Below are positions 1-46,112 of a stretch of 55,084 nucleotides of DNA, piece after piece; position 1 is the first letter of the stretch; each line of letters starts with the position of its first letter. Made by a program: the position numbers and the translations under genes. This DNA comes from Peptococcales bacterium (GTDB lineage: Bacteria > Bacillota > Peptococcia > Peptococcales > BICA1-8). The notes below the pieces were generated by a model. That model was not told where the DNA came from. It did no database searches and saw nothing but the letters and a program-made list of their open reading frames with translations. The DNA is taken from assembly GCA_050946395.1 (NCBI GenBank), contig JBMNUR010000001.1:1-55084 (forward strand), in the 5' to 3' direction.

Positions 1-1576
1 TATTATTAGTTAGTTGAGCTTTGTCAATATCTAGTTTGTTTTGATAGCTATTTAGGGCCTGCTCGATTACTGCCTTTAATGAAATATTGAGACCTTTGTC
101 AATAATGATATGACAAATACCTAGAGCATGTCTTCTTAAAGCGTAAGGGTCTTGGGAGCCTGTAGGCTCAATACCCACCGCAAAACAACCGGCAATAGTA
201 TCCATTTTATCAGTGATACTTACTAAAGTTCCTTCCATGGTTTCGGGTAAAATATCTCCAGCATTACGTGGTAGGTAGTGTTCGAAAATTGCTTTGGCTA
301 CCACATGGTCTTCTCCGGAAAGCAGAGCATACTTTTCACCCATTATTCCCTGTAATTCCGGAAATTCGTAAACCATATTTGTTACCAAGTCGGCCTTAGA
401 TAGATGGGCAGCCCTTAAAGCTCTTTCTTCGATAGCCTTTTCTATACCTAAGGTGCAAGATAAATTAATAACACCAAGCTTTATACGTTCTACCTTTTCA
501 TAAATTGTTCCTAGACTCTCTTGAAACACAATTGCTTTTAGTTTTTCAACATACTCTTCCAATTTAACCTTCTGATCTTCATCATAAAAGAACTTAGCAT
601 CTGCCAGTCTTGCTTCCAGTACTTTTTCATTACCAGCTTGAACTATTTCCAGGTGATCTTTATTACCATTGCGTACAGTAATGAATCTAGGCAATAAATC
701 ACCATTAGCATCTAAAACCGGAAAATAACGCTGATGTTCTTTCATGGGTGTAATTACAGCTTCCTTGGGAATTGCCAGGTACTTTTCATCAAAACTACCC
801 ATTAAAGCGGTAGGATATTCAATTAAATATATAATTTCCTCTAATAACTCATCATCAGGTTCTACCTGTCCCCCTACTGAGGAAGCCAATTCTTCTATTT
901 CCTGAGCAATTACTTTTTTACGTTGGTTAGGGTCTACCATAACATAATTTTCTTCTAATAAAGCAAAATATTGATCCGCACTGGCAATATCGATTTCTTC
1001 TTTACCTAAAAAGCGATGGCCCCGGGAGATACTGTTACTTGTTACTTCTCCAATGTTAAAATTAATAATTTCCGTACCAAATAAAGCTACCAACCATCTA
1101 ATAGGTCGAGCATATTTAAGATCGGAATAACCCCACCGCATAGGTTTGGGGAAATTTATCCCCAGTACAAGTTGAGGTAGAATTTCTTTTAAAACCTCTT
1201 GTACAGGTCGACCGGCAATTTTTTTCAGGGCGAAAACATATGATCCACTATCAGTCTCTTTAACTGTTAAATTATTAACATCTACACCTTGCCCCCGGGC
1301 AAAACCTTGGGCAGCCTTGGTGGGATTGCCTTCACTATCAAATGCGACCTTAGCTGAAGGACCTTTTACTTCCTCTATCAAATCCCCCTGCACTTCCGGC
1401 AGACCCTGAACATAAAGCACAATTCTTCTGGGTGTTCCATAAGCTTTTACTTCTTGATAGGCTAGTCTGGCCTCACTGAATTTTTTCTCAGCCATTTCTT
1501 TTAATTGTTGTAAAGCCGGAGGCATAAATTTAGCAGGTATTTCTTCAGTACCTATTTCTAAAAGTAAATTACGCAT
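1..1576 (-). CDS. glyS: glycine--tRNA ligase beta subunit, N-terminal ~525 codons (3' end of gene lies beyond window start)
   Basis: Not in ORF track because it is open to the window edge. Minus frame is open from base 1 to ATG at 1574-1576. Hand translation starts [33 protein letters not shown]...GTPRRIVLYV, a typical GlyS N-terminus. Start overlaps the glyQ stop as TAATG. Confidence 0.9.
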   Translation of the reverse strand, partial: MRNLLLEIGTEEIPAKFMPPALQQLKEMAEKKFSEARLAYQEVKAYGTPRRIVLYVQGLPEVQGDLIEEVKGPSAKVAFDSEGNPTKAAQGFARGQGVDVNNLTVKETDSGSYVFALKKIAGRPVQEVLKEILPQLVLGINFPKPMRWGYSDLKYARPIRWLVALFGTEIINFNIGEVTSNSISRGHRFLGKEEIDIASADQYFALLEENYVMVDPNQRKKVIAQEIEELASSVGGQVEPDDELLEEIIYLIEYPTALMGSFDEKYLAIPKEAVITPMKEHQRYFPVLDANGDLLPRFITVRNGNKDHLEIVQAGNEKVLEARLADAKFFYDEDQKVKLEEYVEKLKAIVFQESLGTIYEKVERIKLGVINLSCTLGIEKAIEERALRAAHLSKADLVTNMVYEFPELQGIMGEKYALLSGEDHVVAKAIFEHYLPRNAGDILPETMEGTLVSITDKMDTIAGCFAVGIEPTGSQDPYALRRHALGICHIIIDKGLNISLKAVIEQALNSYQNKLDIDKAQLTNN

Positions 1577-2499
1577 TATTTTGCCTCCTTTTCTTTTTCT
1601 TCGATAAGACCCAAAGCTTCCCGCTCTTTGGGATTTTTAATTAAAGGATAACCTAAGGTTTCCCGTTGTTTCACATAACCCTGAGCGCAAACCCTGGCCA
1701 TATTTCTCACCCGGGCAATATAACCGGTACGCTCTGTAACACTAATAGCTCCTCGCGCATCTAAAAGGTTAAAAGCATGGGAACACTTCAATACATAATC
1801 ATAAGCTGGTTGGATAAGCCCTTTTTCTACAACCCTGATAGCTTCTTTTTCATAAGCATCAAAAAGCATAAACAGCATATCAGTATCGGCCACTTCAAAG
1901 TTATAATGAGAATAGTCTACTTCACCTTGATGGTGCACATCACCATAGGTAATACCATCTACCCATTCAATGTCATAGACACTATCTTTTTTCTGAATAA
2001 ACATAGCTAACCGTTCAATCCCATAAGTAATTTCACCACTTACCGGCTTACAGTCAATACCACCACACTGTTGGAAATAGGTGAACTGAGTTACTTCCAT
2101 CCCATCCAACCATACTTCCCAGCCTAAGCCCCAAGCACCTAAAGTAGGGGATTCCCAGTTATCCTCTACGAACCTAATATCATGCATAAGCGGGTCAATA
2201 CCAATAGCTCTCAAACTATCCAGATACAACTCCTGGATATTATCAGGTGATGGTTTAAGAATTACTTGATATTGATAATAATGCTGGAGCCTGTTGGGAT
2301 TTTCCCCGTAACGACCATCAGTAGGTCGGCGGGATGGTTCCACATAAGCCACATTCCATGGTTCAGGGCCTAAAGCTCGTAAAAAAGTAGCAGGATTCAT
2401 GGTTCCCGCACCTTTTTCTAAATCATAAGGCTGCTGAATAATACAGCCATGTTCACCCCAAAATTTATTCAGGGCTAGAATTAGTTCTTGAAAATTCAT
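1576..2499 (-). CDS. glyQ: glycine--tRNA ligase alpha subunit
   Basis: ORF 1576-2514. [26 protein letters not shown]... is strongly GlyQ-like. I prefer ATG at 2497-2499 (GGAG about 9 nt upstream) over the TTG at 2514. Confidence 0.93.
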
Positions 2500-2514
2500 A
2501 AAATCACACTCCAA

Positions 2515-2578
2515 TTCGTTAGTTCGTCAATTCGTGGGTTCGTCAATACGTCTACTCGTGGTGAGTGGGCACGTGGGC
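2515..2578. repeat. in-phase degenerate octamer array in glyQ leader
   Basis: TTCGTTAG TTCGTCAA TTCGTGGG TTCGTCAA TACGTCTA CTCGTGGT GAGTGGGC ACGTGGGC, with CGT/GTG at a fixed phase for 8 units. It lies between the T-box terminator and the glyQ SD. Confidence 0.75.
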
Positions 2579-2599
2579 GAGCCCCATACTACCTGTTGC

Positions 2600-2805
2600 A
2601 ACACAAAAAGCCTCCGCGTCCCTACAGACAGGGACGGGAGGCAAATTCCCGCGGTTCCACCCTGATTGATCTAAAATATTTAGATCCACCTCAAAGTAAA
2701 AAGCTCCAGAGTGCCATTCACTATTGTTCTTCACCGGACTTTCACTACCACCGGCTCGCTTGGGAAGTTTGCAATAGATACTCCTCTCTGTCATTGCTAT
2801 ATATG
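2600..2805 (-). promoter_or_regulatory. T-box leader (tRNA-Gly sensing) with intrinsic terminator
   Basis: Minus strand reads AUCAGGGUGGAACCGCGGGA (revcomp of ~2645-2664), matching the T-box consensus. It is followed by hairpin GCCUCCCGUCCC...GGGACGCGGAGGC plus U5 (2605-2642). A stem I AGAGAGGAG motif sits at ~2781-2790. Candidate specifier GGC (revcomp of 2713-2715) is followed by A. The leader is upstream of glyQS, as in many Firmicutes. Confidence 0.85.
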
Positions 2806-2829
2806 GGTTTTTTCGTCTAATTTAGTTTA

Positions 2830-2858
2830 AATTTAGCAAAAATATTTTATGATGTCAA
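2830..2858 (-). promoter_or_regulatory. candidate sigma-A promoter for the glyQS T-box leader
   Basis: Minus strand TTGACA (2858-2853), 17 nt spacer, TAAATT (2835-2830). Confidence 0.45.
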
Positions 2859-2919
2859 GAGCGATTGCGGAATGACACACGGGTCGTTCCCTACAACACT
2901 GTTCCAATCTTTCACTGTT

Positions 2920-3351
2920 TCACTGTTCTTCATAATCATACAGTTGTATTTCCTGGGTTTCAACTTTTCCTCCGGGTCTTTCGATTTCCAAGGTATACTT
3001 ATTAGCAAGGGCTGCTACAGTACCCAAAGCTGCCACCAAAGCAAAGGTAGAACTTACAGCAGCACCGGCCAAACCTAGGACACCCACATTTATCGGGAAC
3101 TCAAAAACAGTTTTATCCTCTTTTTTTAACTTTATTTTATTGACATTACCCTTTTTTATGATTTCTTTCACCTGGGCCATGATTTGTTTGCCTTTTTTCT
3201 GTAAATCTTCATCCAGGTTAGATCTTTGCTCTTCGATAAAAATTAAGGCCTGAACTACATCTCCTCCGGCTTTATCTAAAGCCTCTTTGGCCTCTTTATA
3301 ACCTACTCCCGTTCTTTCTCGCAATAGGTCAATTTTGGCTAGTTCATCCAT
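2920..3351 (-). CDS. DUF4342-like protein with N-terminal UBA/EF-Ts-N-like domain
   Basis: ORF 2920-3432. I place the start at ATG 3349-3351 (MDELAKIDLLRERTGVGYKEAKEALDKAGGDVVQAL...), preceded by GAAGGGGG. The C-terminal Gly/Ala-rich hydrophobic segment is typical of the family. Confidence 0.7.
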   Translation of the reverse strand: MDELAKIDLLRERTGVGYKEAKEALDKAGGDVVQALIFIEEQRSNLDEDLQKKGKQIMAQVKEIIKKGNVNKIKLKKEDKTVFEFPINVGVLGLAGAAVSSTFALVAALGTVAALANKYTLEIERPGGKVETQEIQLYDYEEQ

Positions 3352-3472
3352 CAAAATACCCCCTTCAGAATAAATTATACCCTGGCGAAGGGAAAAAATA
3401 CCTTCAAAAGTTGGAATGTTACTATCGACCAACCCAATAAATTATCCCAGTAGTCTAATAACGCGCCTACGT

Positions 3473-4231
3473 TTAAATCGTCAATGCGTTTAGAAACTCC
3501 TTTGACTTCAATTTCTTGCCTAAACAAAAAACAATATGTAAATCCAGTATTTCATCCAATTCTTTTTTAGCATTAGTAGAAATCCGTAAACGATTAATTT
3601 TTCTTAATTCCATAGTCATAAGCTGTCTCAATATGACACATGTTTCTCCGCTGGCTTTGACAACTGAAAGTCCGGGCTTATCACTTAAGCATTGGCCACA
3701 GAGAAAGCCACCGAGTTCCGGAGAGAAATAATTAATACCAGCTTCTTTCCGGCCACAATTGGCACAACTACCTAAAATAGGTTCATAACCCAATTGCCGC
3801 AATAAGCGAAGCTCCATGACCTTTGTGGCTAGCCAAGGTTCTTCTAGGGATAATAAATATAAACCCATTAAAATTACCTTAAAAAGCTTTTCATCACTTT
3901 CCCCTTCAGGTATGAGATTTTCGAGGAGGTCAGCTAGATAAGCAGTAGAGCTCATCCGGGAAAGGTCTTCCCTTAAAGGGGCAAAAGTATTAATGGGTTC
4001 TGCTTGGGTTACTGTAGCTAAATTTTTTCCTAGATAAAGTACCACATTGGTATGGCTAAAAACCTGGACTCCGCCACGCAGTTTACTTTTTGGTTTTTTT
4101 ACTCCTTTAACAATAGCTGCAAGCTTTCCTGCCTTTTCCGTATAAAGAGTAAGAAGCTGATCTGCTTCATTATAATTTCGTGCCCGTAAAACCACCGCAC
4201 TAGTTTTCAAAATTTCCGGCAACTGCTTCAC
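3473..4231 (-). CDS. recO: DNA repair protein RecO
   Basis: 252 aa ORF with GTG start. It has an OB-fold-like N-terminus and the CANCG...CGQC zinc motif typical of RecO, and the conserved position after yqzL. Confidence 0.88.
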   Translation of the reverse strand: MKQLPEILKTSAVVLRARNYNEADQLLTLYTEKAGKLAAIVKGVKKPKSKLRGGVQVFSHTNVVLYLGKNLATVTQAEPINTFAPLREDLSRMSSTAYLADLLENLIPEGESDEKLFKVILMGLYLLSLEEPWLATKVMELRLLRQLGYEPILGSCANCGRKEAGINYFSPELGGFLCGQCLSDKPGLSVVKASGETCVILRQLMTMELRKINRLRISTNAKKELDEILDLHIVFCLGKKLKSKEFLNALTI

Positions 4232-4360
4232 CTACTCTTCTTCTGGAACAACCTTAGGAATCAAATCTTCATCTTCCACCAACATCTGTTTATAGATTAA
4301 ATATGCTCCTACTCCACCTGTATGCTGAAAATATTGCCAAAAAAAGTCCTTTATCTGCAT
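4232..4360 (-). CDS. yqzL: YqzL-like small protein (42 aa)
   Basis: Below the ORF-track cutoff. Hand translation is MQIKDFFWQYFQHTGGVGAYLIYKQMLVEDEDLIPKVVPEEE. AAAGGA lies 8 nt upstream of ATG 4358-4360, and the TAG stop abuts the recO GTG. Position and the W..F..TG...YL.YK pattern match the B. subtilis yqzL family. Confidence 0.6.
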   Translation of the reverse strand: MQIKDFFWQYFQHTGGVGAYLIYKQMLVEDEDLIPKVVPEEE

Positions 4361-4558
4361 GGTGACCATCCTTTCTGTTTGGGACTTACTCACGCAGTAT
4401 AGTTTATCAAAGAAAATCGATAGGTATACTGCCCTTCTTTTTCCACCAGGATATGATTCCTATCACTATTTATTATAAATCTTTTTTACAAAAATAGTAA
4501 ATACATTTCACCATCTATAACTGTTGCTTAACTACTCTTTAACCAATATTGTTTTGTT

Positions 4559-4587
4559 ACATAATATTTGTTAATTATCCCATACTA
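4559..4587 (+). promoter_or_regulatory. candidate forespore (sigma-G/F type) promoter for the ger operon
   Basis: ACATA (4559-4563), 17 nt spacer, CATACTA (4581-4587), compared with consensus GHATR-17/18-CATXHTA. It lies upstream of the ger genes. Confidence 0.4.
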
Positions 4588-4701
4588 AAGTTATTAAAAA
4601 AGTTTCCAAAGAAAGGGCTTTATCAGTGAAATTTTTTAAATGGAAAAAAAAAGAAAAATAATAAGGACACAAAAGAAAATATAAATGTTCCGGTAGCAGA
4701 A

Positions 4702-5820
4702 GTGCCCTCTTCTATACCTATGGAAATTCCTATTTTCCAAAATACTCCCAGGGCAAAGCATCAAGTAGGACGGGGCCCCCAAAGACTTAACTCGGAGAAT
4801 TTGGAATTTAATCTTTCCACCCTAAAAAAAATGTTACCTGATCCCAATCTAGTTGTTGAAAATTTTACCATTGGTAGTCGTACCCAAACTAAAGTAAGTA
4901 TTGTTTACCTTAAAGATATCGTACATCAAGGTATTTTACAAGAAGTTAAAACTAGACTGGAAAAGATTCATGCTGAAATAATTTTAGATTCTAATTTTAT
5001 CGAAAAAAACATTCAAAATTTCACCTGGAGTCCTTTCCCCCAAGTGGAAAAAACTAATCGCCCTGATGTTACTATATTTGCTCTTAACCAAGGTCGAATC
5101 GCAATTCTAGTAAATGGTACTCCCGATACATTATTAGCCCCCACGACTTTATTTGACATTTTAGATACTTATGACGATTCCTACCACAGATGGTTTGTTG
5201 CCAGCAGTTTTTTTCGCATAGCCCGAATTATACTCCTATTAATAGCAACCTTTTTACCGGCTTTTCATATTTCCTTGACTTCCTATAATCCGGAACTTAT
5301 TCCTACTATCTTATCTTTTAATATTATCGCAGCACGTAGTTCTAGTCCTTTACCCGTTTATTTAGAAACTTTTATTCTAATCGGAATAGCAGAAGCAACG
5401 CGGATGGTCATGTTAAGGTTTCCCACCTTTATTGGCCAAACTGTAGCTCTTTTTGCCCCAATATCTTTAGTTTTAACAGGCCTTGCCTCCAATATGTTTG
5501 GCGCACCCCTGATTATTATTGTTACCCTGTCTATTATTGCTACTTATACTATCTCCGACTTTGACTTACGTTCTTCAGTCCGGATGATCCAATTTTTCAC
5601 TATGCTCTTCTCCACATTTTTCGGTCTTTTCGGGCTAGCTATGGCATTTTTCTATATAAATATTCATCTGGTAACACTCAAATCTTTTGGTGTTCCCTAT
5701 CTAGCACCCCTAGCACCTATGAATTTAAGTGCCTGGGGGCACACTATTTTGAAAGAAGATACAACTGATATGCCGCCTGATACAACCTATAAACGAAAAT
5801 TAGGTGATAACAATGAATAA
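4702..5820 (+). CDS. GerA-family spore germination protein, A subunit (short N-terminal domain; likely 5' frameshift, see findings)
   Basis: 372 aa ORF. The stretch GRGPQRLNSENLEFNLSTLKKML...SPFPQVEKTNRPDV...GRIAILVNGTPDTLLAPTTLF plus 5 TM segments aligns to the GerAA core. A better SD plus GTG lies at 4626 in another frame. Confidence 0.8.
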   Translation: MPSSIPMEIPIFQNTPRAKHQVGRGPQRLNSENLEFNLSTLKKMLPDPNLVVENFTIGSRTQTKVSIVYLKDIVHQGILQEVKTRLEKIHAEIILDSNFIEKNIQNFTWSPFPQVEKTNRPDVTIFALNQGRIAILVNGTPDTLLAPTTLFDILDTYDDSYHRWFVASSFFRIARIILLLIATFLPAFHISLTSYNPELIPTILSFNIIAARSSSPLPVYLETFILIGIAEATRMVMLRFPTFIGQTVALFAPISLVLTGLASNMFGAPLIIIVTLSIIATYTISDFDLRSSVRMIQFFTMLFSTFFGLFGLAMAFFYINIHLVTLKSFGVPYLAPLAPMNLSAWGHTILKEDTTDMPPDTTYKRKLGDNNE

Positions 5821-6929
5821 GACCTTTAAATTTCAAGAGAAGATTTACCCCCAGGCTTTAATGATTCTCATATTTATCGGTTTAAGTGAGTGTATACTCA
5901 TCCATTTTACCTACATGGTCGTAAGTATCGCGGGCCGAGATGCTTGGCTAGTGGTTATTTTAGGCAGCCTTTTTAGTTTTCTTCTGGTCTATTTATTGAT
6001 CACTTTAGCCAATAGATTTCCAAAAGAAACTTTTTTTCGAATATAGCAAAAAAATCTGGGGCAAACCTATTACATACCTGTTAGTCATTGGCTATTTTTT
6101 CTACTGGTTAACATATATAACTTTATTTCTCGAGGATACTGTACAAATCAACAAAATGTTTTTTTTGCAGAAAACCCCCGTGATTGTACAAAACATTTTG
6201 TTACTCATTGGGATTATATGGATAATATCTTATGGCTTTAGTAATTTAGTCCGTTTTTATCAAGTAATGTTGCCCTTTTTTATAGGATTTTTATTGGTAA
6301 GTATTGGCCTCTCCTTACAAAAAATAGACTTTTCCACCTTTTTCCCCATCCTGGAAAATGGTTTTTTACCCCTTATTAAAGGTACTATTGTATATTGTGG
6401 GTTTCTGCAAGGGATCGAAGTTATTTTATTTACCTACCCCTTTTTTTCTAAAGGTAACAAAAAATCACTCTATAAAAATGCTTTAATAGGAGTAGGTCTC
6501 ATCAACTTTTTAGCTTTGACACAAATCCTCATTAGTGTGGGGGGATTAGGTTTACACTGTGTTAGAGAGTTATTATGGCCTAATTTTACCGTTCTACAAC
6601 TTATTGAAATACCTGGTCTTATCGGAGAAAGATTTGACCTATTATTTACCTTTGCCTGGTTTATTTCTTTATTTTGTGCCGGTATTTTATTTTATTATCT
6701 AGCAGCATATGGAATAATTGTAGCCTTTAAAATAAAAAACAAAAAATTTATTATTCTTTTAGTGGGAGTATTCACCATGATGTTTTCCTATATTATTCCT
6801 AATTACGCTTGGAGTACCCTTATCTGGCAAATCATAAACTACATAACAATTGTCTTTATTTTTTTAATACCTTTACTGACTCTCCTACTTGCCCTCTTCC
6901 GTAAGCAAGGGAGGCCGAGCCATGATTAA
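5813..6929 (+). pseudogene. GerAB-type spore germination permease split by a frameshift in a T7 run
   Basis: ORFs 5804-6046 and 6156-6929 are two halves of one permease. Deleting one T from T7 (6031-6037) reads ...FPKETFFEYSKKIWGKPITYLLVIGYFFYW... continuously. ATG 5813 is preceded by AGGTGA. Confidence 0.8.
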
Positions 6930-8067
6930 GAGAACATATTTTTATCTATTAACTTTAGCTTTATTATTTACCGGTACCGGCTGCTGGGACTTATTAGATA
7001 TTAATGACCGAGCGTATATCACTACTATTGGATTAGACAAACCGGCCAACCCTTTAACTGCAACCGGCGAAATACCTAATAGATATAAAGTAACCGCTGA
7101 AATACTATTACCCAATTTATTTAAAGAATCAGCCTCACGATTAGAAAGGAATAAAGAAACAGCAAGTGTCATTTATACTGCTGAAGGTGAAACAATTCAA
7201 AAGGCCATAGATGATATCCAAGCCAGGGTGCCTTTTAAAATATCCCTTGCTCATTTTAATATCTTAATTATCGGAGAAGATTTAGCTAGAGAAAGTTTGA
7301 AAAATCCTTTGGATTATTTTAAAAGAAACCCGGACGTAGCTAGGAGGTTAAGGGTATTTTTTGCCCATAATAGTGAGGCTAAAGATATTTTTAAACTAAA
7401 ACCCCAATTTTCCCAACTAATTTCCATGGAATTAATTACTCCTAAGCCCCTAGATTTATCTATGAATAGGTATGAACCGTTTAGTGATATATTAAAAGAA
7501 ATGTATATCAATAATGGAATATCATTAGGGGCGCGGCTTTTTCTATCGGATGGGGGAGAATCAGTAACTCGCCATGGTGCTTGTGTTTTTAAGGACTGGA
7601 AACTTTTTGGTTGGTTAAGTAAAGATGAAACAAGACATGCCAACTGGTTTGTAGGTAAGGGGGAGTCTATAGTTGTAGGGCAATCAAAAGACGAAGTTTT
7701 TTCCTACTATATTGAGAAAAGAAAACTAAAAATACAACCAAAAGTCGAAAATAATGAATTAAGCTTCATGGTTAATTTAAAAACCCAGGGTGTTATTTTA
7801 CAAAAAGAAGGTAATCATATGTTAAGTGAGATAAAAGACATACGAAAGCTTGAAGAGCTTTTTAATAAAGTTATTGAAAAAGAAGTAAAACATGCTATCC
7901 ATAAAGCCCAAAAAGATTTGCAAACAGATTATTTAGGCTTTGGTATGAAACTTTATAATAAGTACCCTCAAATGTATAAAAGCCTTGATTGGGAAGAAAC
8001 TTTCCCCAATGTACCCATAAACGTGCAAGTTGAAGCAACTATTTCAAGTTTTGGACAAGCAAGATGA
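6922..8067 (+). CDS. Ger(x)C-family spore germination lipoprotein
   Basis: ORF 6889-8067. ATG at 6922 is preceded by AAGGGAGG. The signal peptide and lipobox read MIKRTYFYLLTLALLFTGTGC. The start overlaps the gerAB stop (ATGATTAA). Confidence 0.85.
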   Translation: MIKRTYFYLLTLALLFTGTGCWDLLDINDRAYITTIGLDKPANPLTATGEIPNRYKVTAEILLPNLFKESASRLERNKETASVIYTAEGETIQKAIDDIQARVPFKISLAHFNILIIGEDLARESLKNPLDYFKRNPDVARRLRVFFAHNSEAKDIFKLKPQFSQLISMELITPKPLDLSMNRYEPFSDILKEMYINNGISLGARLFLSDGGESVTRHGACVFKDWKLFGWLSKDETRHANWFVGKGESIVVGQSKDEVFSYYIEKRKLKIQPKVENNELSFMVNLKTQGVILQKEGNHMLSEIKDIRKLEELFNKVIEKEVKHAIHKAQKDLQTDYLGFGMKLYNKYPQMYKSLDWEETFPNVPINVQVEATISSFGQAR

Positions 8068-8138
8068 TTTTGAGGGGCTTCGCCCCGTATCTACTGTAGC
8101 TACAGTATCTACAGTTCTACAGAAAGAAGTCGCTATCT

Positions 8139-8228
8139 GTCATCGCGAGGAGCGATAGCGACGTGGCGATCCCGGTTGTGGAGATAATCGCGTAAAGGAG
8201 GGATTGCTTCACTAACGTTCATAATGAC
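8139..8228. repeat. GTCAT...ATGAC imperfect palindrome (33-mer family)
   Basis: Left arm GTCATCGCGAGGAGCGATAGCGACGTGGCGATC (8139-8171) recurs at 35571-35603 (identical, inverted) and at 22778-22810 (1 mismatch). The right arm is a degenerate inverted copy ending ATAATGAC. Confidence 0.8.
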
Positions 8229-16773: not shown

Positions 16774-16796
16774 ATGTACCTCTGCACACTTTATTA

Positions 16797-16834
16797 AACC
16801 ACGGGCCCTCCGGGCACACAGATAAACACGGATA
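16797..16834. repeat. AACCACGG decamer-type module
   Basis: AACCACGGGCCCTCCGGGCACACAGATAAACACGGATA, with an inverted partner at 16936-16966. Confidence 0.7.
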
Positions 16835-16874: not shown

Positions 16875-16904
16875 AAAAAGGCGGACAGGGTCGTCCGCCC
16901 CTAC
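16875..16904 (-). terminator. REP-like GTAG hairpin, terminator after ybeY
   Basis: Minus strand reads GTAGGGGCGGACGACCCTGTCCGCC followed by TTTTTAC. The 27-mer is identical to the copy at 23425-23451. Confidence 0.65.
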
Positions 16905-16935
16905 AGTTATATAAGACCCTTAAAACTTAACATTT

Positions 16936-20581: not shown

Positions 20582-20748
20582 AATTAATGTATACCTCCTA
20601 TTAGTGGCTAGTTTTGGGTTATTTATTGGGTAAGTATTCAGTGCTCCTTGCTATGACACGATGTCACGATATAACCTTTTTTATTTTCAAAACTGTAGTT
20701 CCTGTAGGTACGGGCGAAGCCCTAAATATGCTACGGGGCGTAGCCCCT

Positions 20749-20968
20749 CAGAATGTAGACAAACTCCATATTTATCAACGTTACGCTGGCTCAGACAATT
20801 TATTGTGAATGAACTCAACGGCTTCAGGAATTAGCAAAACTCACCTTCGGTTCAAACAGTTGCTAATTCTGGTCTTCAGCCGTCTGCGTTCTTTGTTCTA
20901 AACTCGCCAAATGCTTCACTTATGATAAAAATATATGGATTTTGTTTTGAATAACTTTGTCAACAGGC
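20749..20968 (+). repeat. 220-bp imperfect-palindrome element, copy A (MITE-like or structured RNA)
   Basis: About 95% identical by eye to the reverse complement of 44767-45060, except for the apical segment. Termini are TGTAGACAAACT / ACTTTGTCAACA (10/12 TIR). It is flanked by GCTACGGGGCGTAGCC on both sides. Confidence 0.8.
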
Positions 20969-21006
20969 TACGGGGCGTAGCCTCTAAGTTATTATACCCC
21001 AATATT

Positions 21007-22242
21007 TTATTGCGTGCCAACATTAGATATGAGATATGGTACTGCAATGTTCTCCAAGATCTTCCAGGTAACTTCTACTACAACCTTATCTTCCCTATCT
21101 ATGGGGATGATTTGAACCGATTTTTCCAGTACTTTGGCATCATCAGTTAAGAGGCAACTTAAATCTTTTTCCGCCCGCCTAATAGCTTCATGATAAGCTT
21201 CTTCCTGTCCATAAGAATTTACCAAACGTTTTTCCTCCCAAAAGACATTCGTTATTAATTCGACAGGCACCTGGATATTCCTCCACGAAGGAAATGTTTT
21301 TATAGTAGTTTCCAAATCATAATACTTATAGGGGGATTGTGCTTCCCCTTTTAATACAATTATTTCTTTCCCTATTTTTAATAAAACCTGTTCACTTTTC
21401 ATCCCGGTTTTTGTAATTTCCGTTTCTAAAAATTCACAAGAATTTTGCCTTGTAAGTTTTACTATGGCCCGTACTACACCTTTAGCACGTACCAATGTAG
21501 GTTCACCTGCTGGTGTATGTGTGCCATCTTCATTAAGATGTATTTCAGGATAAACTAAACCGGAAATAAGGATTTGCCCTTGTTTAATTTGATCCCCTTC
21601 TTTAACCTGAGGAGTACCCACAAGTACTAACATTTCTTTAATTATTCCTGATTCCTTAGCCACTAAATGAGCATAATTATGGTCATCAGTTTCGGGAATT
21701 AATACTTTTTCTGAAATTTCAATAGTAACTTTTGTTCCTTGAATACTTATACCTACCCAAGCCAGTTTAGGATGGGCATCAAGTAAAGCAGTTTCCAATT
21801 TATCAATATCAATTTTTTTTCTTACTACACCGGGTTTTAATCCCCAGTGACTGGCCAATTCCTTAATCTCACTGGTTGTTAAATCTTCATTACCTTTTAC
21901 ATCAATCACCCAAACAAAAGAGGTTAAAATATATATACTTAAAAAAAACAATAGGCTGCCTAAAGCTAAAGTTTTTCTACGTTTGATAAGTTTAATCTGA
22001 AAAGGAAGGCCCCGTCGATCATAAACTTTTATTCGGCAAGAACAAGCTCTACTTATGCGTGCTAAGGGCCTAAAGGCATATAACCTTATTTTCATACTAA
22101 TTCTATTTTCGCCAATTTGCTTTATATCCCATAAAAAAATTCCCCGGGTTAAAGCCATATTAATTACTTTTTCGGGAAATTGTCCTTCAATTATTATTAT
22201 CAAATAACCCACTAAATAGGAATACCACCGCAATTTTTTCAA
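21007..22242 (-). CDS. yqfD: sporulation protein YqfD
   Basis: 411 aa. ...IIIEGQFPEKVINMALTRGIFLWDI... plus one TM segment is the typical YqfD architecture, and it follows yqfC. Confidence 0.88.
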   Translation of the reverse strand: MKKLRWYSYLVGYLIIIIEGQFPEKVINMALTRGIFLWDIKQIGENRISMKIRLYAFRPLARISRACSCRIKVYDRRGLPFQIKLIKRRKTLALGSLLFFLSIYILTSFVWVIDVKGNEDLTTSEIKELASHWGLKPGVVRKKIDIDKLETALLDAHPKLAWVGISIQGTKVTIEISEKVLIPETDDHNYAHLVAKESGIIKEMLVLVGTPQVKEGDQIKQGQILISGLVYPEIHLNEDGTHTPAGEPTLVRAKGVVRAIVKLTRQNSCEFLETEITKTGMKSEQVLLKIGKEIIVLKGEAQSPYKYYDLETTIKTFPSWRNIQVPVELITNVFWEEKRLVNSYGQEEAYHEAIRRAEKDLSCLLTDDAKVLEKSVQIIPIDREDKVVVEVTWKILENIAVPYLISNVGTQ

Positions 22243-22750: not shown

Positions 22751-22810
22751 GTCATTGCAAGCCGATAGGCGTTGCGGGATCGCCACGTCGCTAACGCTCC
22801 TCGCGATGAC
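22751..22810. repeat. GTCAT...ATGAC imperfect palindrome
   Basis: GTCATTGCAAGCCGATAGGCGTTGCGG-GATCGCCACGTCGCTAACGCTCCTCGCGATGAC. The right arm is the 33-mer with 1 mismatch. Confidence 0.8.
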
Positions 22811-22872
22811 AAAATAGCGACTTAACAGGTTGGAATCTTAATCTATATTTACTGTAGGTGCCGAGTTAAGGG

Positions 22873-23424
22873 CTAGCCCCTGGTGAACTTTTTCTTTGCC
22901 CGGGGCGGGCCTAAAACTTCCGCCCAGACTATACCATTAACAACTGCCTTTTTATCTATATCATTTAAACCATAGTCAAAAGTTTGCCATTCCTCTTCTT
23001 GAATTTCAATAAATGTTGGGGCGACCTTCTCTTTAACTTTCGGCATATTTAAAACTTGCGGTTTTTCCCTTTTGTCAGATTTCGATGTTTCATCTTTAGC
23101 AGCTACTTTTTTAACATCTTTCACATTTTTTGCAGTTTCCCCTTTGGGTAATTCTACCTTGGGTAGTTCCAATGGAAAAGGAAACCATTCAGGCATAGGT
23201 AGTGGTTCGGTCTTAGGTGGGTGAGACGCCTTTTTAGGCTCGGTCCTTGGCTGTTCAAAAACATTAGGCCGAGGCGTGGTTTTAGTCCTTGGTTTATCTC
23301 CTTGACGGCCAGCATGTTTTCTTTTAGCTTCATTACTCTTTAATAAACCGCTCACAATAAACCACAAGAAAACTAAAATGCCCATTATATCAAAATCCAG
23401 TGTAAACACCACCTTCCAGAACAT
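22873..23424 (-). CDS. hypothetical membrane-anchored Pro/Lys/Glu-rich protein (yqfB position)
   Basis: 183 aa ORF with an N-terminal TM segment (ILVFLWFIVSGLL), a low-complexity linker, and a C-terminal ...VVNGIVWAEVLGPPRAKKKFTRG. No convincing SD precedes either ATG (23424 or 23385). Confidence 0.55.
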   Translation of the reverse strand: MFWKVVFTLDFDIMGILVFLWFIVSGLLKSNEAKRKHAGRQGDKPRTKTTPRPNVFEQPRTEPKKASHPPKTEPLPMPEWFPFPLELPKVELPKGETAKNVKDVKKVAAKDETSKSDKREKPQVLNMPKVKEKVAPTFIEIQEEEWQTFDYGLNDIDKKAVVNGIVWAEVLGPPRAKKKFTRG

Positions 23425-23449
23425 GGCGGACAGGGTCGTCCGCCCCTAC
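23425..23449 (-). repeat. REP-like GTAG hairpin abutting the ORF start
   Basis: Same sequence as the ybeY terminator copy (16880-16904) but without a U-tract. On the minus strand the hairpin ends directly at ATG 23424. Confidence 0.7.
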
Positions 23450-23515
23450 AAGTGATACAGGTGTGACTTCTAGTCTAGCGAAGCGAAACCTTAACCTCAA
23501 CCTTAACCTTTATTT

Positions 23516-30999: not shown

Positions 31000-31108
31000 A
31001 ACCACAGATGAACACAGATGAACACGGATTCCATGTTATATTTTGGGGTCTTTTTTATAATTTACTTTTAAAACCGTGTTTATCGGTGTGCCCGAAGGGC
31101 CCGTGGTT
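31000..31108. repeat. inverted pair of AACCACGG decamer-type modules
   Basis: AACCACAGATGAACACAGATGAACACGGATTCC (31000-31032) faces CCGTGTTTATCGGTGTGCCCGAAGGGCCCGTGGTT (31072-31108). Confidence 0.7.
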
Positions 31109-31123
31109 TATTTATAATCACAA

Positions 31124-33917: not shown

Positions 33918-35471
33918 TTATTTATTGTTCGGTGCGGATTCAACTTCTTTTTTGCGAATTATAGTATCAATCCTTAAAATAGCTTCCGCAACCTCACCTG
34001 CAGCTTTTAATGCATGTATTTTAACTAAGGTTGGATCAACAACCCCTGATTTAACCATGTCGGAAATGTCCCCTGTATCACAATCAACTCCCAAAGAAAA
34101 ACTTTGCTTTTCCACCTGAGCTTGAGTTACATCGCCTAATTTTTCTAAAGGATTAAAACCCGCGTTAGACATAATCTGAATAAAGGGTCTTTCTAAAGCC
34201 CGAATCACACAATTAATACCAAAAGCAGACATGCCTTTCAAGTTTTTCTTCAGTTCTTCTACTTCTCTAGCTACCGTTAATTCTATAGAACCTGCACCAG
34301 GAACAATACCACCTTTGATGGCAGCCTGAACACTACTTGCGGCATCTTTAGCAATACGTTCCCTTTCACCTACTACTTCTTCAGTAGAAGCACTCACTAG
34401 GATTGTTGCCGTGGGTTTACCCTTGCCACCTACGACACGGATATGTTCAAGTTTTTCATTTTCATAAACACATTTAGATTGTCCTAGGTATTTGGCAATT
34501 TCCTCAGGTTCTTTCTTTAACCCTGTCCTTTTAAGCATCCGGGCACCAGTATGTTCAGCGATATTCCGTAATTCTTTATTGGCTACCCTTTGCACAACCA
34601 TAATCCCTGCATCAGAAAATATTTCTTCTGCTAGATCATCGACTCCCCGATCTACAAGGACTACATTAACTCCTAGCTCAACAAGTTTAAATAGATTTGT
34701 CCTAAATTCTTCTCTTAGTGTCAGATAACGTGAAAACCCGGCTTCCGTAGCCAAAGCTTCATCATCTAATTCCTCGGGTTCTAAAGCATCATCAACAAGC
34801 AAGATTTTTACTTTTCCGGTAAGTTCTCGGGGCATTTGTTTGTTCATTCGTTCTTTGTTCACTAAAACTCCCTGAAAAACTTCATTGTCAGCACCCTCTA
34901 TAGCTTTAATAATTTCCGAAAATTTAAAGGTAGGATCTTGAAGCTTTTCTGTACCAATAGCCTTAGCCGCCTCCACCACAAGTCTGGCAATATCCCTATT
35001 CTCTCGTCCGGCAATCAAAGCTATATTGTAAAGAAGAGGGTCATCTAGGCCCTGTATCTCTTGACTCTTGTCTTGAATACTTTGAATAGCTTTATTAACA
35101 CCTTGGCGTAGCCCTTCAATAACCCGGGCAACCGGTACCCCCTGTAGCACTTGGGTAAATCCTTCGTTAACCATTTCCCCGGCCATTAAAGTTGCGGTAG
35201 TAGTCCCATCTCCAATTTCATCTTGTTGGGCTTTGGCAATGTTTATTAACATTTTAGCAGCAGGATGATTTACTTCCATTAGGTTTAAGATTGTAACCCC
35301 ATCATTGGTAATTACTACGTCGCCAAATTGGTCAACAAGCATTGTATCCAAACCCTTAGGGCCAATAGTACCTTGTACTGCACCGGCAATAGCCCGCACA
35401 GCATTAACATTTGTTTCTAAGGCGCTATACTTGGTATCAACTTCAGAATTTGTTACACTTTTTACATTCAA
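33918..35471 (-). CDS. thermosome/TCP-1-type (group II-like, bacterial group III) chaperonin
   Basis: 517 aa with [10 protein letters not shown] and [14 protein letters not shown] motifs of the Cpn60/TCP-1 family. TTG start lies 9 nt after AGGAGG, and the gene ends 21 nt upstream of grpE. Confidence 0.85.
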
Positions 35472-35490: not shown

Positions 35491-35574
35491 TAGTGGCTAG
35501 TTTCTAGTGGCCAGTTTCTAGACTTTCGGGCTAATTTATCGGGTCGGGTCTATAGTCTATGGTCTATCTGGATC
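35491..35574. repeat. 12-unit in-phase heptamer array in chaperonin leader
   Basis: TAGTGGC TAGTTTC TAGTGGC CAGTTTC TAGACTT TCGGGCT AATTTAT CGGGTCG GGTCTAT AGTCTAT GGTCTAT CTGGATC. Confidence 0.75.
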
Positions 35575-35645
35575 GCCACGTCGCTATCGCTCCTCGCGAT
35601 GACAGGGAGCAGGAACCGCTCCCTGTCATTTAGCGCAGCGAAATC
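35571..35645. repeat. 33-mer palindrome family, tail-to-tail with central perfect hairpin
   Basis: GATCGCCACGTCGCTATCGCTCCTCGCGATGAC is the exact inverse of 8139-8171. It is followed by the ATGACAGGGAGC-aggaacc-GCTCCCTGTCAT 12-bp hairpin and the degenerate arm GTCATTTAGCGCAGCGAAATC. Confidence 0.8.
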
Positions 35646-44671: not shown

Positions 44672-44766
44672 GTTAATAAGCAGGAACGGTGCTACTTACA
44701 AAAAACACCGTTCCTGCTTGACTACTTCGTCTAATGTAATTATGCGTCATAAATGACGCATAATCA

Positions 44767-45060
44767 GCCTGTTGACAAAGTTATTCATAACAAAATCTAT
44801 ATAATTTTATCATTAGTGAAGCATTTGGCGAGTTTAGATAAAAAGAACGCAGACGGCTGAAGACCAGAATTAGCAACTGTTTGACCCGACACTTAATTGC
44901 AATAATTAACTCTGCATCTTGAATAAAGAATAGTATGTATCATGAGTTTCCAATTAAGTGTCGGGGAGTTTTGCTAATTCCTGAAGCCGTTGAGTTCATT
45001 CACAATAAAATTGTCTGAGCCAGCGTAACGTTGATAAATATGGAGTTTGTCTACATTCTG
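44767..45060 (-). repeat. 294-bp imperfect-palindrome element, copy B (inverted relative to copy A)
   Basis: The reverse complement matches 20749-20968. The 9-nt apex ACCTTCGGT of copy A is replaced by an 81-bp hairpin (44885-44965). It is flanked by TGCGTCATAAAT(G/A)ACGCATAAT on both sides. Confidence 0.8.
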
Positions 45061-45095
45061 CTGCGTCATAAATAACGCATAATTTACATCATAAT

Positions 45096-46112
45096 TTACA
45101 TATAGCATAATCCTATCACCAAATTTTCCATTAGTTCTCCAGGGTCCCCTCCGCTAGATTTTAAGAGTACTTCCGTTTCCAAAAGCTTAGCAAAAGCTTT
45201 AACTAATTGTTCTCCTGAAAAACTTCTACCTTGACTTAATACTTTAGCTAATACAAAGGGCTGAATGGCAAGTTTCTCTCTAATTTGCCTTTCAGAAAAG
45301 CCTTGACTTACCATATCTTTAGCTGCAAAGATTAAGCGGTATTGGCGCACTAGGAGACTCAAGATCTTCATAGGTGATTCACCCATAATTAAACTCAGTT
45401 GCAAGAGTTCCAAAGCTTTTTTACCTTTTTTTTCGGCAATACTGTCTATCAGATTAAAAACATTTATTTCGCTGGTCTTAGTAACAATATCTTGAACCAT
45501 TGCAGAGGTTATTACGGTCGAATTTCCGGAATATAGTACTAACTTTTCCAGTTCATTTTGAAGAACTGCTAGACCCTCACTTGCTAATAAAGCTATTATA
45601 TGAAAAGCTTGAGGTTCAATTTTTTTACCCTTTTCTTTAAGAAAATGCTCTATCCACCGCCCTAGATTTTCACCTGTTAGGCTTGCAAACTCCACAGTCT
45701 GTCCTCTTTCTTCCACGGCTTTATAAATTTTCTTTCGCTTATCAGCTTTACCTAAAACTTTAAAAATTAAACAACAGCTAGTATTGGGATTTGTAAGATA
45801 CTTTAATAAAGGTGCTTCATTAAATTTGTTTTCACCACTTTTAGTTGCAGCAAAATATACCGCATTTTCTACAATCACGACTCTTTTTTCAGCCAAAACC
45901 GGCATAGTATTGGCTAAGTCAACAATTTGGGTAAGACTTACCTTTTCTCCGTCAACCTTATCAAAATTAAAAGCCTCAAGCTCGGAAGGCAAAACTTTTG
46001 CTTTTATTTTATCTACATAATCATCCATTAAAAGTTTTTCCGTTCCATAAAAAAGATAAACAGGAGCTAAAACGCCCCTATTTATACTCTTAAGTAAAGC
46101 TATATGTTCCAT
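45096..46112 (-). CDS. holA: DNA polymerase III delta subunit
   Basis: 338 aa. ...PVYLFYGTEKLLMDDYV... is typical of HolA, and it keeps the conserved position next to comEC and rpsT. Confidence 0.88.
   Translation of the reverse strand: MEHIALLKSINRGVLAPVYLFYGTEKLLMDDYVDKIKAKVLPSELEAFNFDKVDGEKVSLTQIVDLANTMPVLAEKRVVIVENAVYFAATKSGENKFNEAPLLKYLTNPNTSCCLIFKVLGKADKRKKIYKAVEERGQTVEFASLTGENLGRWIEHFLKEKGKKIEPQAFHIIALLASEGLAVLQNELEKLVLYSGNSTVITSAMVQDIVTKTSEINVFNLIDSIAEKKGKKALELLQLSLIMGESPMKILSLLVRQYRLIFAAKDMVSQGFSERQIREKLAIQPFVLAKVLSQGRSFSGEQLVKAFAKLLETEVLLKSSGGDPGELMENLVIGLCYM

Follow-up and report, generated by a model that had tools for sequence, protein, structure and literature searches.

A two-copy miniature element bracketed by duplicated hairpins in a Peptococcales genome: a candidate for structure-directed transposition

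The insertion sequences IS1272 and TnSha1, staphylococcal members of the IS1182 family, insert into hairpins of 21-85 bp with no sequence specificity. Their targets are often terminators lying just downstream of genes and are entered in either orientation, and the stem-loop is deleted or replaced, with no target duplication left (PMC5678879; PMC4923244). Another outcome was drawn as pathway b in Fig. 13 of Wan et al., where joining at the 5' feet leads to the entire stem-loop being duplicated (PMC5678879). Long target duplications (5-6, 15-17 or 27-29 bp) are found in a different family, IS1202, whose ends begin 5'-TGT and whose ISTde1 and IS1202 subgroups occur in Firmicutes (bioRxiv 10.1101/2022.12.17.520857). 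Non-autonomous miniature transposons (MITEs) of prokaryotes are defined as non-coding elements of <500 bp with terminal inverted repeats of ~4-30 bp and flanking direct repeats, the further criteria being multiple dispersed copies and a cognate autonomous IS with the same termini (PMC10969869).

Here we compare with these systems an element that occurs twice in the window, by which we mean the whole 55,084-bp contig analysed, from a Peptococcales MAG. Our reading, to which we give a probability of about 0.6, is that it is a new non-autonomous transposon (MITE) that inserts at hairpins and duplicates them. The broader statement, that the element is mobile and MITE-like at all, we hold to be quite likely.

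Anatomy and setting of the element

The pair of copies was found by repeat search, blastn and global alignment. The copies and their parts are located as follows:

20749..20969 (+): copy 1 of the element, 221 nt, with the short apex ACCTTCGGT
44766..45060 (-): copy 2 of the element, 295 nt, in the opposite orientation
44883..44966 (-): apical palindromic module specific to copy 2, replacing ACCTTCGGT of copy 1
20750..20765 (+): left terminal inverted repeat of copy 1, AGAATGTAGACAAACT, matching the right terminus at 12/16
20954..20969 (-): right terminal inverted repeat of copy 1, AGCCTGTTGACAAAGT in the minus-strand reading
45044..45059 (-): left terminal inverted repeat of copy 2
44766..44781 (+): right terminal inverted repeat of copy 2

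The earlier note had matched 20749-20968 to the reverse complement of 44767-45060, and blastn and global alignment show the match to be real, with coordinates that agree within 1 nt. Globally aligned, the two copies are 96.4% identical over 221 aligned positions, with 8 mismatches and two 1-nt indels. The left 96 nt had been described as differing by a single 1-nt indel; the indel is there, in a T-run, accompanied by one A/C change at the apex base. The distal right arm, for which about seven differences had been counted by eye, holds six of the point differences. The apex of copy 2 is 72 nt larger than that of copy 1 and contains a perfect 15-bp hairpin (CCCGACACTTAATTG/CAATTAAGTGTCGGG), and no further copy of this module was found in the window or in the fetched loci. 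A nested insertion was considered as the origin of this apex and rejected on account of its flanks (CCC/GGG), which are not direct but inverted.

The element is bounded by AGAATGTAGACAAACT ... ACTTTGTCAACAGGCT. The 10/12 terminal inverted repeat proposed in the earlier note (TGTAGACAAACT/TGTTGACAAAGT) is present as the core of a longer one, AGAATGTAGACAAACT / AGCCTGTTGACAAAGT, which reaches the element tips, matches at 12 of 16 positions and falls within the ~4-30 bp of MITEs; paired termini like these occur nowhere else in the window. The two arms are ~83% complementary, with indels, and the right arm carries an additional end-like segment of ~20 nt. From this anatomy and the comparison of the copies, the element is an old imperfect palindrome whose two copies diverged recently. 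Its longest open stretch is ~30 codons and no ORF is conserved between the copies, in agreement with the non-coding status assigned to it earlier, and its length (221 and 295 nt) is below the 500 bp of the MITE definition.

Copy 1 occupies the spacer of two minus-strand genes, yqfD and phoH, and copy 2 that of the convergent genes rpsT and holA, starting 36 nt past the holA stop codon. These contexts had been called unrelated, which proved correct; the flanks of the two copies are unrelated as well, and the 55 kb hold two independent insertions. The copies are oppositely oriented relative to transcription and replication alike. With host transcription, the reverse complement of copy 1 would stand in the phoH 5' UTR, and copy 2 would be transcribed forward, after holA. 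Close to copy 1 there is a promoter-like site:

20991..21020 (-): TTGGCA-18-TATAAT, an 11/12 match, just downstream of the yqfD stop

The context of its -10 box, TGG(G/T)GTATAAT, is kept in three relatives (L018, L020 and L022). Judging by its position, and with a predicted start site, this promoter would drive a reverse-complement transcript of copy 1 within the phoH 5' UTR.

The contig has a GC content of 37.6% and a GC skew that is negative throughout. Its ORFs of at least 150 aa are all housekeeping or sporulation genes, save two with no Pfam match. The earlier note had seen no transposase in the element, and none is encoded among the ORFs of the 55-kb window, nor is an integrase, a recombinase, Cas1, a Y1 transposase or a RAYT. 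Both contig ends, checked as a clue to a parent IS, are ordinary coding sequence. A T-box at 2627-2803 is the sole match in the window at the Rfam gathering threshold. REP-like repeats, made of GTAG plus a hairpin, occur beside copy 1 and also at 8067-8130.

The foldback structure bears on a different reading, which develops the structured RNA gene offered in the earlier note: the two sites would hold paralogous copies of a non-coding RNA gene, or of a cis-regulatory RNA, whose long hairpin would be the functional fold. The helices named there appear in the fold of copy 1 (-49.3 kcal/mol, z = -2.3), and for copy 2 the long-hairpin fold reaches z = -4.8. On the reverse strand both copies fold over their full length (-53.2 and -81.9 kcal/mol), a G-to-A change becoming a G-U pair, and at the apex base pairing survives one double change, from A-T to C-G. 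Moreover, the left 96 nt are much better conserved than the distal right arm, and copy 1 lies just downstream of the conserved promoter. On the forward strand of copy 2, however, the G-to-A change breaks the outer helix, which is missing from the minimum free energy structure, the z-score of copy 1 is only -2.3, the apex has been exchanged wholesale between the copies, and the evidence of covariation is limited to two sequences. Transcription from the host genes would read one strand of the element at copy 1 and the other at copy 2; the promoter-like match inside the element is weak, at 9/12, and a terminator is absent. No Rfam family was recovered at gathering or E-value thresholds: the gathering scan of the window had no match in the element and the E-value scans of both copies returned sub-threshold noise only, consistent with the earlier statement that no RNA family could be named. 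Finally, terminal inverted repeats and the flanking target duplications described below are features of transposons, foreign to RNA genes. We consider the RNA reading very improbable.

Direct repeats at the two insertion sites

On either side of each copy, local DNA is repeated imperfectly in direct orientation. These repeats, the hairpins that they comprise and the repeat unit adjoining copy 1 are the following:

20730-20748 and 20967-20985: direct repeat of copy 1, GCTACGGGGCGTAGCC[C/T]CT, 18/19
45062-45083 and 44743-44764: direct repeat of copy 2, ATTATGCGT[T/C]ATTTATGACGCA, 21/22
20730..20748 (+): left target hairpin of copy 1, GCTACGGGGCGTAGCCCCT, -9.3 kcal/mol
20967..20985 (+): right target hairpin of copy 1, GCTACGGGGCGTAGCCTCT
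45062..45083 (-): left target hairpin of copy 2, ATTATGCGTTATTTATGACGCA, starting 12 nt past the holA stop codon
44743..44764 (-): right target hairpin of copy 2, ATTATGCGTCATTTATGACGCA, -8.9 kcal/mol
20693..20722 (+): resident REP-like unit adjoining copy 1, CTGTAG repeats plus GGGCGAAGCCC

The direct repeats, which were overlooked in the earlier note, are the most informative feature of the element. Their scores are 27 (copy 1) and 39 (copy 2), against a maximum of 21 in 500 shuffles, and the flanks of one copy compared with those of the other (left with left, right with right) show background similarity only. The boundary of the copy 1 duplication is ambiguous (16-19 nt) because the first 3 nt of 20967..20985 overlap the shared GGCT. 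The duplications are offset from the hairpin feet, and those of copy 2 lie 1 nt off the shared sequence on each side. Judged from occupied sites alone, the flanking direct repeats of the MITE definition are present, and at 19-22 bp they are far longer than usual. Correia, ERIC and RUP-type MITEs leave duplications of a few bp and typically number tens to hundreds of copies, whereas the element described here has duplications that are complete hairpins, and two known copies. It is like them in being shorter than 500 bp, intergenic and non-coding, with terminal inverted repeats and flanking direct repeats, and it is like the stem-loop MITEs of UTRs in having a stable stem-loop that transcripts of neighbouring genes would include (PMC10969869).

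Each direct repeat makes up a complete hairpin, whose more stable version has -9.3 kcal/mol at copy 1 and -8.9 kcal/mol at copy 2. Hairpins as strong as these make up 0.3% of the 19-nt and ~1% of the 22-nt non-coding windows of the contig, and the probability that two targets would both be of this strength by chance is therefore ~1e-4 to 1e-5. In sequence the target hairpins have nothing in common, that of copy 1 being GC-rich and REP-like and that of copy 2 an AT-rich palindrome which extends into the holA stop codon region. Since two unrelated sites are each bracketed by complete copies of the local hairpin, the element looks like a hairpin-inserting, hairpin-duplicating miniature transposon.

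Repeats of this length might instead have been made by fixed, long staggered cuts, had the element been moved as a MITE by an IS1202-family transposase, the hairpin content of the targets then being incidental or the result of a mild preference. The element shares with the ISTde1 and IS1202 subgroups its unusually long duplications, its occurrence in a Firmicute and a TGT motif in the terminal repeats, where TGTAGAC and TGTTGAC recall the TGT of IS1202. Unlike those of IS1202, its duplications are unequal, ~19 (16-19) and 22 bp, and fall between the subgroup lengths, and TGT is internal by 5 nt on the left (CAGAA) and by 4 nt on the right (AGCC, reading inward); two features that define the IS1202 family are therefore missing. 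We tried TGT...ACA as the true tips, which would give duplications of 25-33 bp with an ungapped identity of only 20/25 and 24/33, and rejected them because CAGAA and GGCT, outside TGT, are common to both copies. Under fixed cuts, two strong hairpins would have been hit by chance, at the very low joint probability given above. A hairpin preference is not reported for the long-duplication IS1202 subgroups (bioRxiv 10.1101/2022.12.17.520857), and our literature search found no MITE of the IS1202 family. An IS1202-type origin is thus an unlikely explanation in our judgement.

Other enzymes leave direct repeats as well. In spacer integration, Cas1-Cas2 duplicates a palindromic repeat after cutting at either side of it, and casposons have terminal inverted repeats and target duplications; the ~20-nt palindromes bracketing the insert formally resemble the repeat duplication of CRISPR spacer integration. 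A Cas1-type, casposase-like integrase might then have placed the element, or a site-specific recombinase for which the repeats would serve as att cores. As stated above, the window contains no Cas1, integrase or recombinase. The att-like repeats of the two copies have unrelated sequences, contrary to what a sequence-specific recombinase would leave, and the termini weakly resemble the ends of DDE-type IS. We think this origin very unlikely.

A PATE, the other mobile option raised in the earlier note, fares worse. In that case an IS200/IS605-derived PATE or a REP/REPIN element would have moved as single-stranded DNA by means of a Y1 (HUH) transposase. This is the type of element that the REP-like repeats near copy 1 and at 8067-8130 bring to mind, and the flanking hairpins are directly oriented, like the left-end and right-end hairpins of IS200/IS605 elements. 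These flanking hairpins are, however, wholly different between the two copies, so they would not be recognisable as ends by one enzyme. Terminal inverted repeats and target duplications, both present here, are foreign to the IS200/IS605 family, and the PATE variant is unsupported for this reason. In addition, the copies are oppositely oriented to the replication strand in a contig of uniformly negative GC skew, contrary to a one-strand insertion bias, and the window encodes neither a Y1 transposase nor a RAYT. We regard movement by a Y1 transposase as extremely improbable.

The duplication of hairpins by the insertion itself has to be weighed, at copy 1, against a tandem hairpin that may have been there before. 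REP-like hairpins are repeated anyway around copy 1. In the closest relative (L018, YqfD 80% identical) a single hairpin, AGGGGCTTCGCCCCGTA, with CTACAG repeats, directly follows the conserved TATAAT, and the resident unit at 20693..20722 is its ortholog. Compared with L018, the window has the resident hairpin plus two near-identical hairpins that bracket the element. Because the relatives are too diverged and the species samples are all occupied, a pre-existing tandem may still account for the repeat of copy 1.

Occurrence of the element and comparison of its termini

At the rpsT-holA site the element was found in three independent samples of this species, one of which supports the phoH-side junction of copy 1 as well. 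An independent JGI contig (L002) contains a complete copy 2, with 99.7% identity. Five Logan contigs, coming from three of the four sides, break off 23-29 nt into the element, as they should at a repeat in a k=31 assembly. In the relatives, by contrast, the element is absent from both orthologous loci: the holA-rpsT spacer of BICA1-8 measures 132 nt, versus 452 nt in the window, and the yqfD-phoH spacer ~102 nt, versus 425 nt. The earlier note had suggested counting copies in relatives by blastn or nhmmer; blastn and an nhmmer profile of the two copies, run on the window and ~200 kb of related loci, detected no diverged copies. This absence from the relatives, at both loci and across their ~200 kb, also counts against an RNA gene.

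Exact look-ups of HolA, PhoH and S20 for strains with an empty site returned samples with the insertions only, and those of YqfD (411 aa) and the 88-aa S20 gave no record. In plasmids, blastn with the whole element and with a 52-nt end had no match. An exact 20-mer scan of 185,579 GTDB species genomes yielded 3 chance matches only, an exact 21-mer scan of metagenome contigs 1 chance match, inside coding sequence, and two exact-pattern scans of viral contigs none. A chimeric six-frame translation, aimed at spurious ORFs overlying other copies, matched none of 5.8 billion proteins, by an approach of uncertain sensitivity. An autonomous element sharing these ends was not found in the searches made. 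Within the collections searched, the sequence family of the element therefore appears to be unrecorded.

For the comparison of termini we located IS1272 on a plasmid by means of a published 30-nt probe, and took 12 more IS1182-family members from Firmicute plasmids. The ends of 12 of the 13 elements read roughly (A/G)G(A/G)GGCTG(T/G)GACA(T/A)AA(G)T. The right terminus of our element, AGCCTGTTGACAAAGT, resembles such ends, for example GAGGCTGTGACATAAGT; fitted by eye from the true tips, the element ends are GAGGCTGT-GACATAAGT versus AGCCTGTTGACA-AAGT, and the pattern AG.C.TG..GACA.AA(G)T is shared between the element and the family, at a suggestive level only. This match by eye was downgraded after a family weight matrix failed: with 20 termini from 10 elements, the element ends rank from 97 to 6,173 among 110,128 positions, which is not significant, and shuffles score higher. 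When each end is aligned to its best among 20 IS1182-family ends, the right end falls among the best 0.06% of window positions and the left end among the best 0.6%; with the end positions fixed in advance, these ranks are suggestive, at roughly p = 0.005 and 0.05, and short of proof. The nhmmer search with the 20-terminus profile returned nothing, the model being too short. Altogether, the terminal similarity to the IS1182 family is suggestive, as judged from these alignments.

The likeness extends to other features. As with IS1272 and TnSha1, the target is a hairpin chosen by structure, two strong hairpins of unrelated sequence having been used here, near gene ends, in either orientation and in a Firmicute host. 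As in the IS1182 family, there are imperfect terminal inverted repeats of 16 nt; and IS1272L has a tandemly duplicated end, comparable to the additional end-like segment of ~20 nt in the right arm of our element. The junctions differ. The 13 IS1182-family copies have an A-run on one side and a T-run on the other, the context that replacement of a terminator stem-loop should leave, and none of the 13 has a flanking direct repeat above background, whereas two full hairpin copies bracket the element, the whole hairpin being duplicated where IS1272 and TnSha1 would have deleted or replaced it. It also differs in size, 221-295 bp with no transposase, versus ~1.8-2.0 kb for IS1182-family elements. 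In its choice of target the element seems to act like the IS1182 family; because its junctions are of the other kind, we do not assign it to that family.

A possible route of insertion and its meaning

The MITE option of the earlier note is the one that agrees with these observations: unrelated insertions in opposite orientations, terminal repeats, flanking duplications, non-coding sequence and absence from relatives. In the hairpin-duplicating transposon that we favour, the element would depend for its mobilisation in trans on a DDE-type transposase whose gene lies elsewhere in the genome, and its integration would be steered by DNA structure rather than sequence. The enzyme would select a short hairpin or cruciform within intergenic DNA and join the two ends of the element to its flanks, at points roughly 20 bp from each other, and repair of the staggered gaps would then leave one full copy of the stem-loop on each flank of the element. 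This route would correspond to the hypothetical pathway b for IS1272 (Wan et al. 2017), and the outcome predicted for that pathway is the anatomy found here, including the unequal duplication lengths that track the two hairpins. Among types of partner, a transposase like those of the IS1182 family would be the likeliest; taken as a claim in its own right, an IS1182-like partner is a tentative proposal, with the odds somewhat against it. It is conceivable, though doubtful, that the element provides the first case in nature of transposition directed by structure in which a whole stem-loop is duplicated.

Once inserted, the element is probably a passenger. Each copy would add a long stem-loop to a host mRNA, the two coming from opposite strands of the element, and copy 1 would put one of ~220 nt at the start of the phoH mRNA.

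Since the element is known from two copies in a single uncultured genome, and neither an enzyme nor an exact empty site was found, the finding is a lead, not a result. The hairpin-duplicating junction is nonetheless unusual and mechanistically informative. The element, with its 16-nt ends defined and natural targets available at two sites, offers a substrate for tests of cruciform-directed integration. Elements of this kind will escape MITE finders in which duplications are capped at ~10 bp. Where a hairpin lies close to the end of a gene, as a terminator or a 5' stabiliser stem-loop does, it may be a hot spot for insertion. If stem-loop duplication is confirmed, it would imply a transposase variant, IS1182-like or other, that has not been described and that joins ends at the outer feet of a cruciform, and the length of the duplication would be set by the size of the hairpin, not by a fixed stagger of the enzyme; target structure could in this way dictate duplication length. 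Hairpin-choosing transposases would then resolve integration in two ways, by deletion of the stem-loop, as in IS1272, or by its duplication, as in the element described here.

Genes and a T-box leader elsewhere in the window

Besides the two copies of the palindromic element, the window carries several genes and one leader that can be described individually:

1576-2514 (-), gene for the alpha subunit of glycyl-tRNA synthetase
2627-2803 (-), T-box leader upstream of that gene (Rfam RF00230, 104 bits)
4702-5820 (+), GerA ORF
6156-6929 (+), spore-permease ORF
33918-35471 (-), gene for a Cpn60/TCP-1-type chaperonin, 517 aa
47556-49841 (-), comEC, intact, 761 aa

The chaperonin gene lies between hrcA and grpE, in the dnaK operon, an arrangement known in some Clostridia for archaeal-like chaperonins. 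The Pfam profile matches of the GerA and spore-permease ORFs cover only the C-terminal two-thirds of each profile, and these ORFs of a germination receptor operon may contain frameshifts, or their starts may be mis-called. As in the window, comEC is intact in the compared locus L001; in two further samples of this species it is broken into ORFs of 370 aa and 398 aa (L002 651-2937, L003 851-3137). The break points to a frameshift at strain level or to an error in assembly.

Dispersed repeats and the copy 2 junction

A REP-like unit, in which AGGGGCTTCGCCCCGTA precedes a tandem series of (N)CTACAG(N2-3) repeats, occurs more than once in the window, and the hairpin targeted by copy 1 of the element is a variant of this unit. 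Three more families of dispersed repeats are GC-rich in an AT-rich genome, intergenic, 31-41 nt long and 94-97% identical.

8067-8130 (+), REP-like unit
20693-20722, REP-like unit, reversed relative to that at 8067-8130 (+)
L018 1775-1835, REP-like unit 3' of yqfD in the closest relative
8132-8174, 22775-22811 and 35570-35610, GC-rich family of three members
16875-16905 and 23420-23450, GC-rich family of two members
16795-16831 and 31074-31110, GC-rich family of two members

At copy 2, the 12-nt sequence ATGTAAATTATG, within which the holA stop codon falls, stands twice in tandem (45083-45106, minus strand) directly before the left target repeat. This pair may be a piece of a more complex copy 2 junction, or may reflect a separate slippage event.

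The yqfD-phoH spacer

One promoter-like site overlaps the end of yqfD:

20991-21020 (-), TTGGCA-18-TATAAT

Its -10 context, TGG(G/T)GTATAAT, is conserved in three relatives (L018, L020 and L022), all of which carry a small hairpin at most ~35 nt downstream, directly after the -10 in two of the three. This is likely to be the promoter of phoH, accompanied by a stem-loop that would act as a 5' stabiliser. In L020, a related Clostridia MAG, the yqfD-phoH spacer is 322 nt long (1308-1629) and holds its own GATGCATC-containing repeats, which are unrelated to the element. The spacer seems to be a gathering place for repeats in several lineages.
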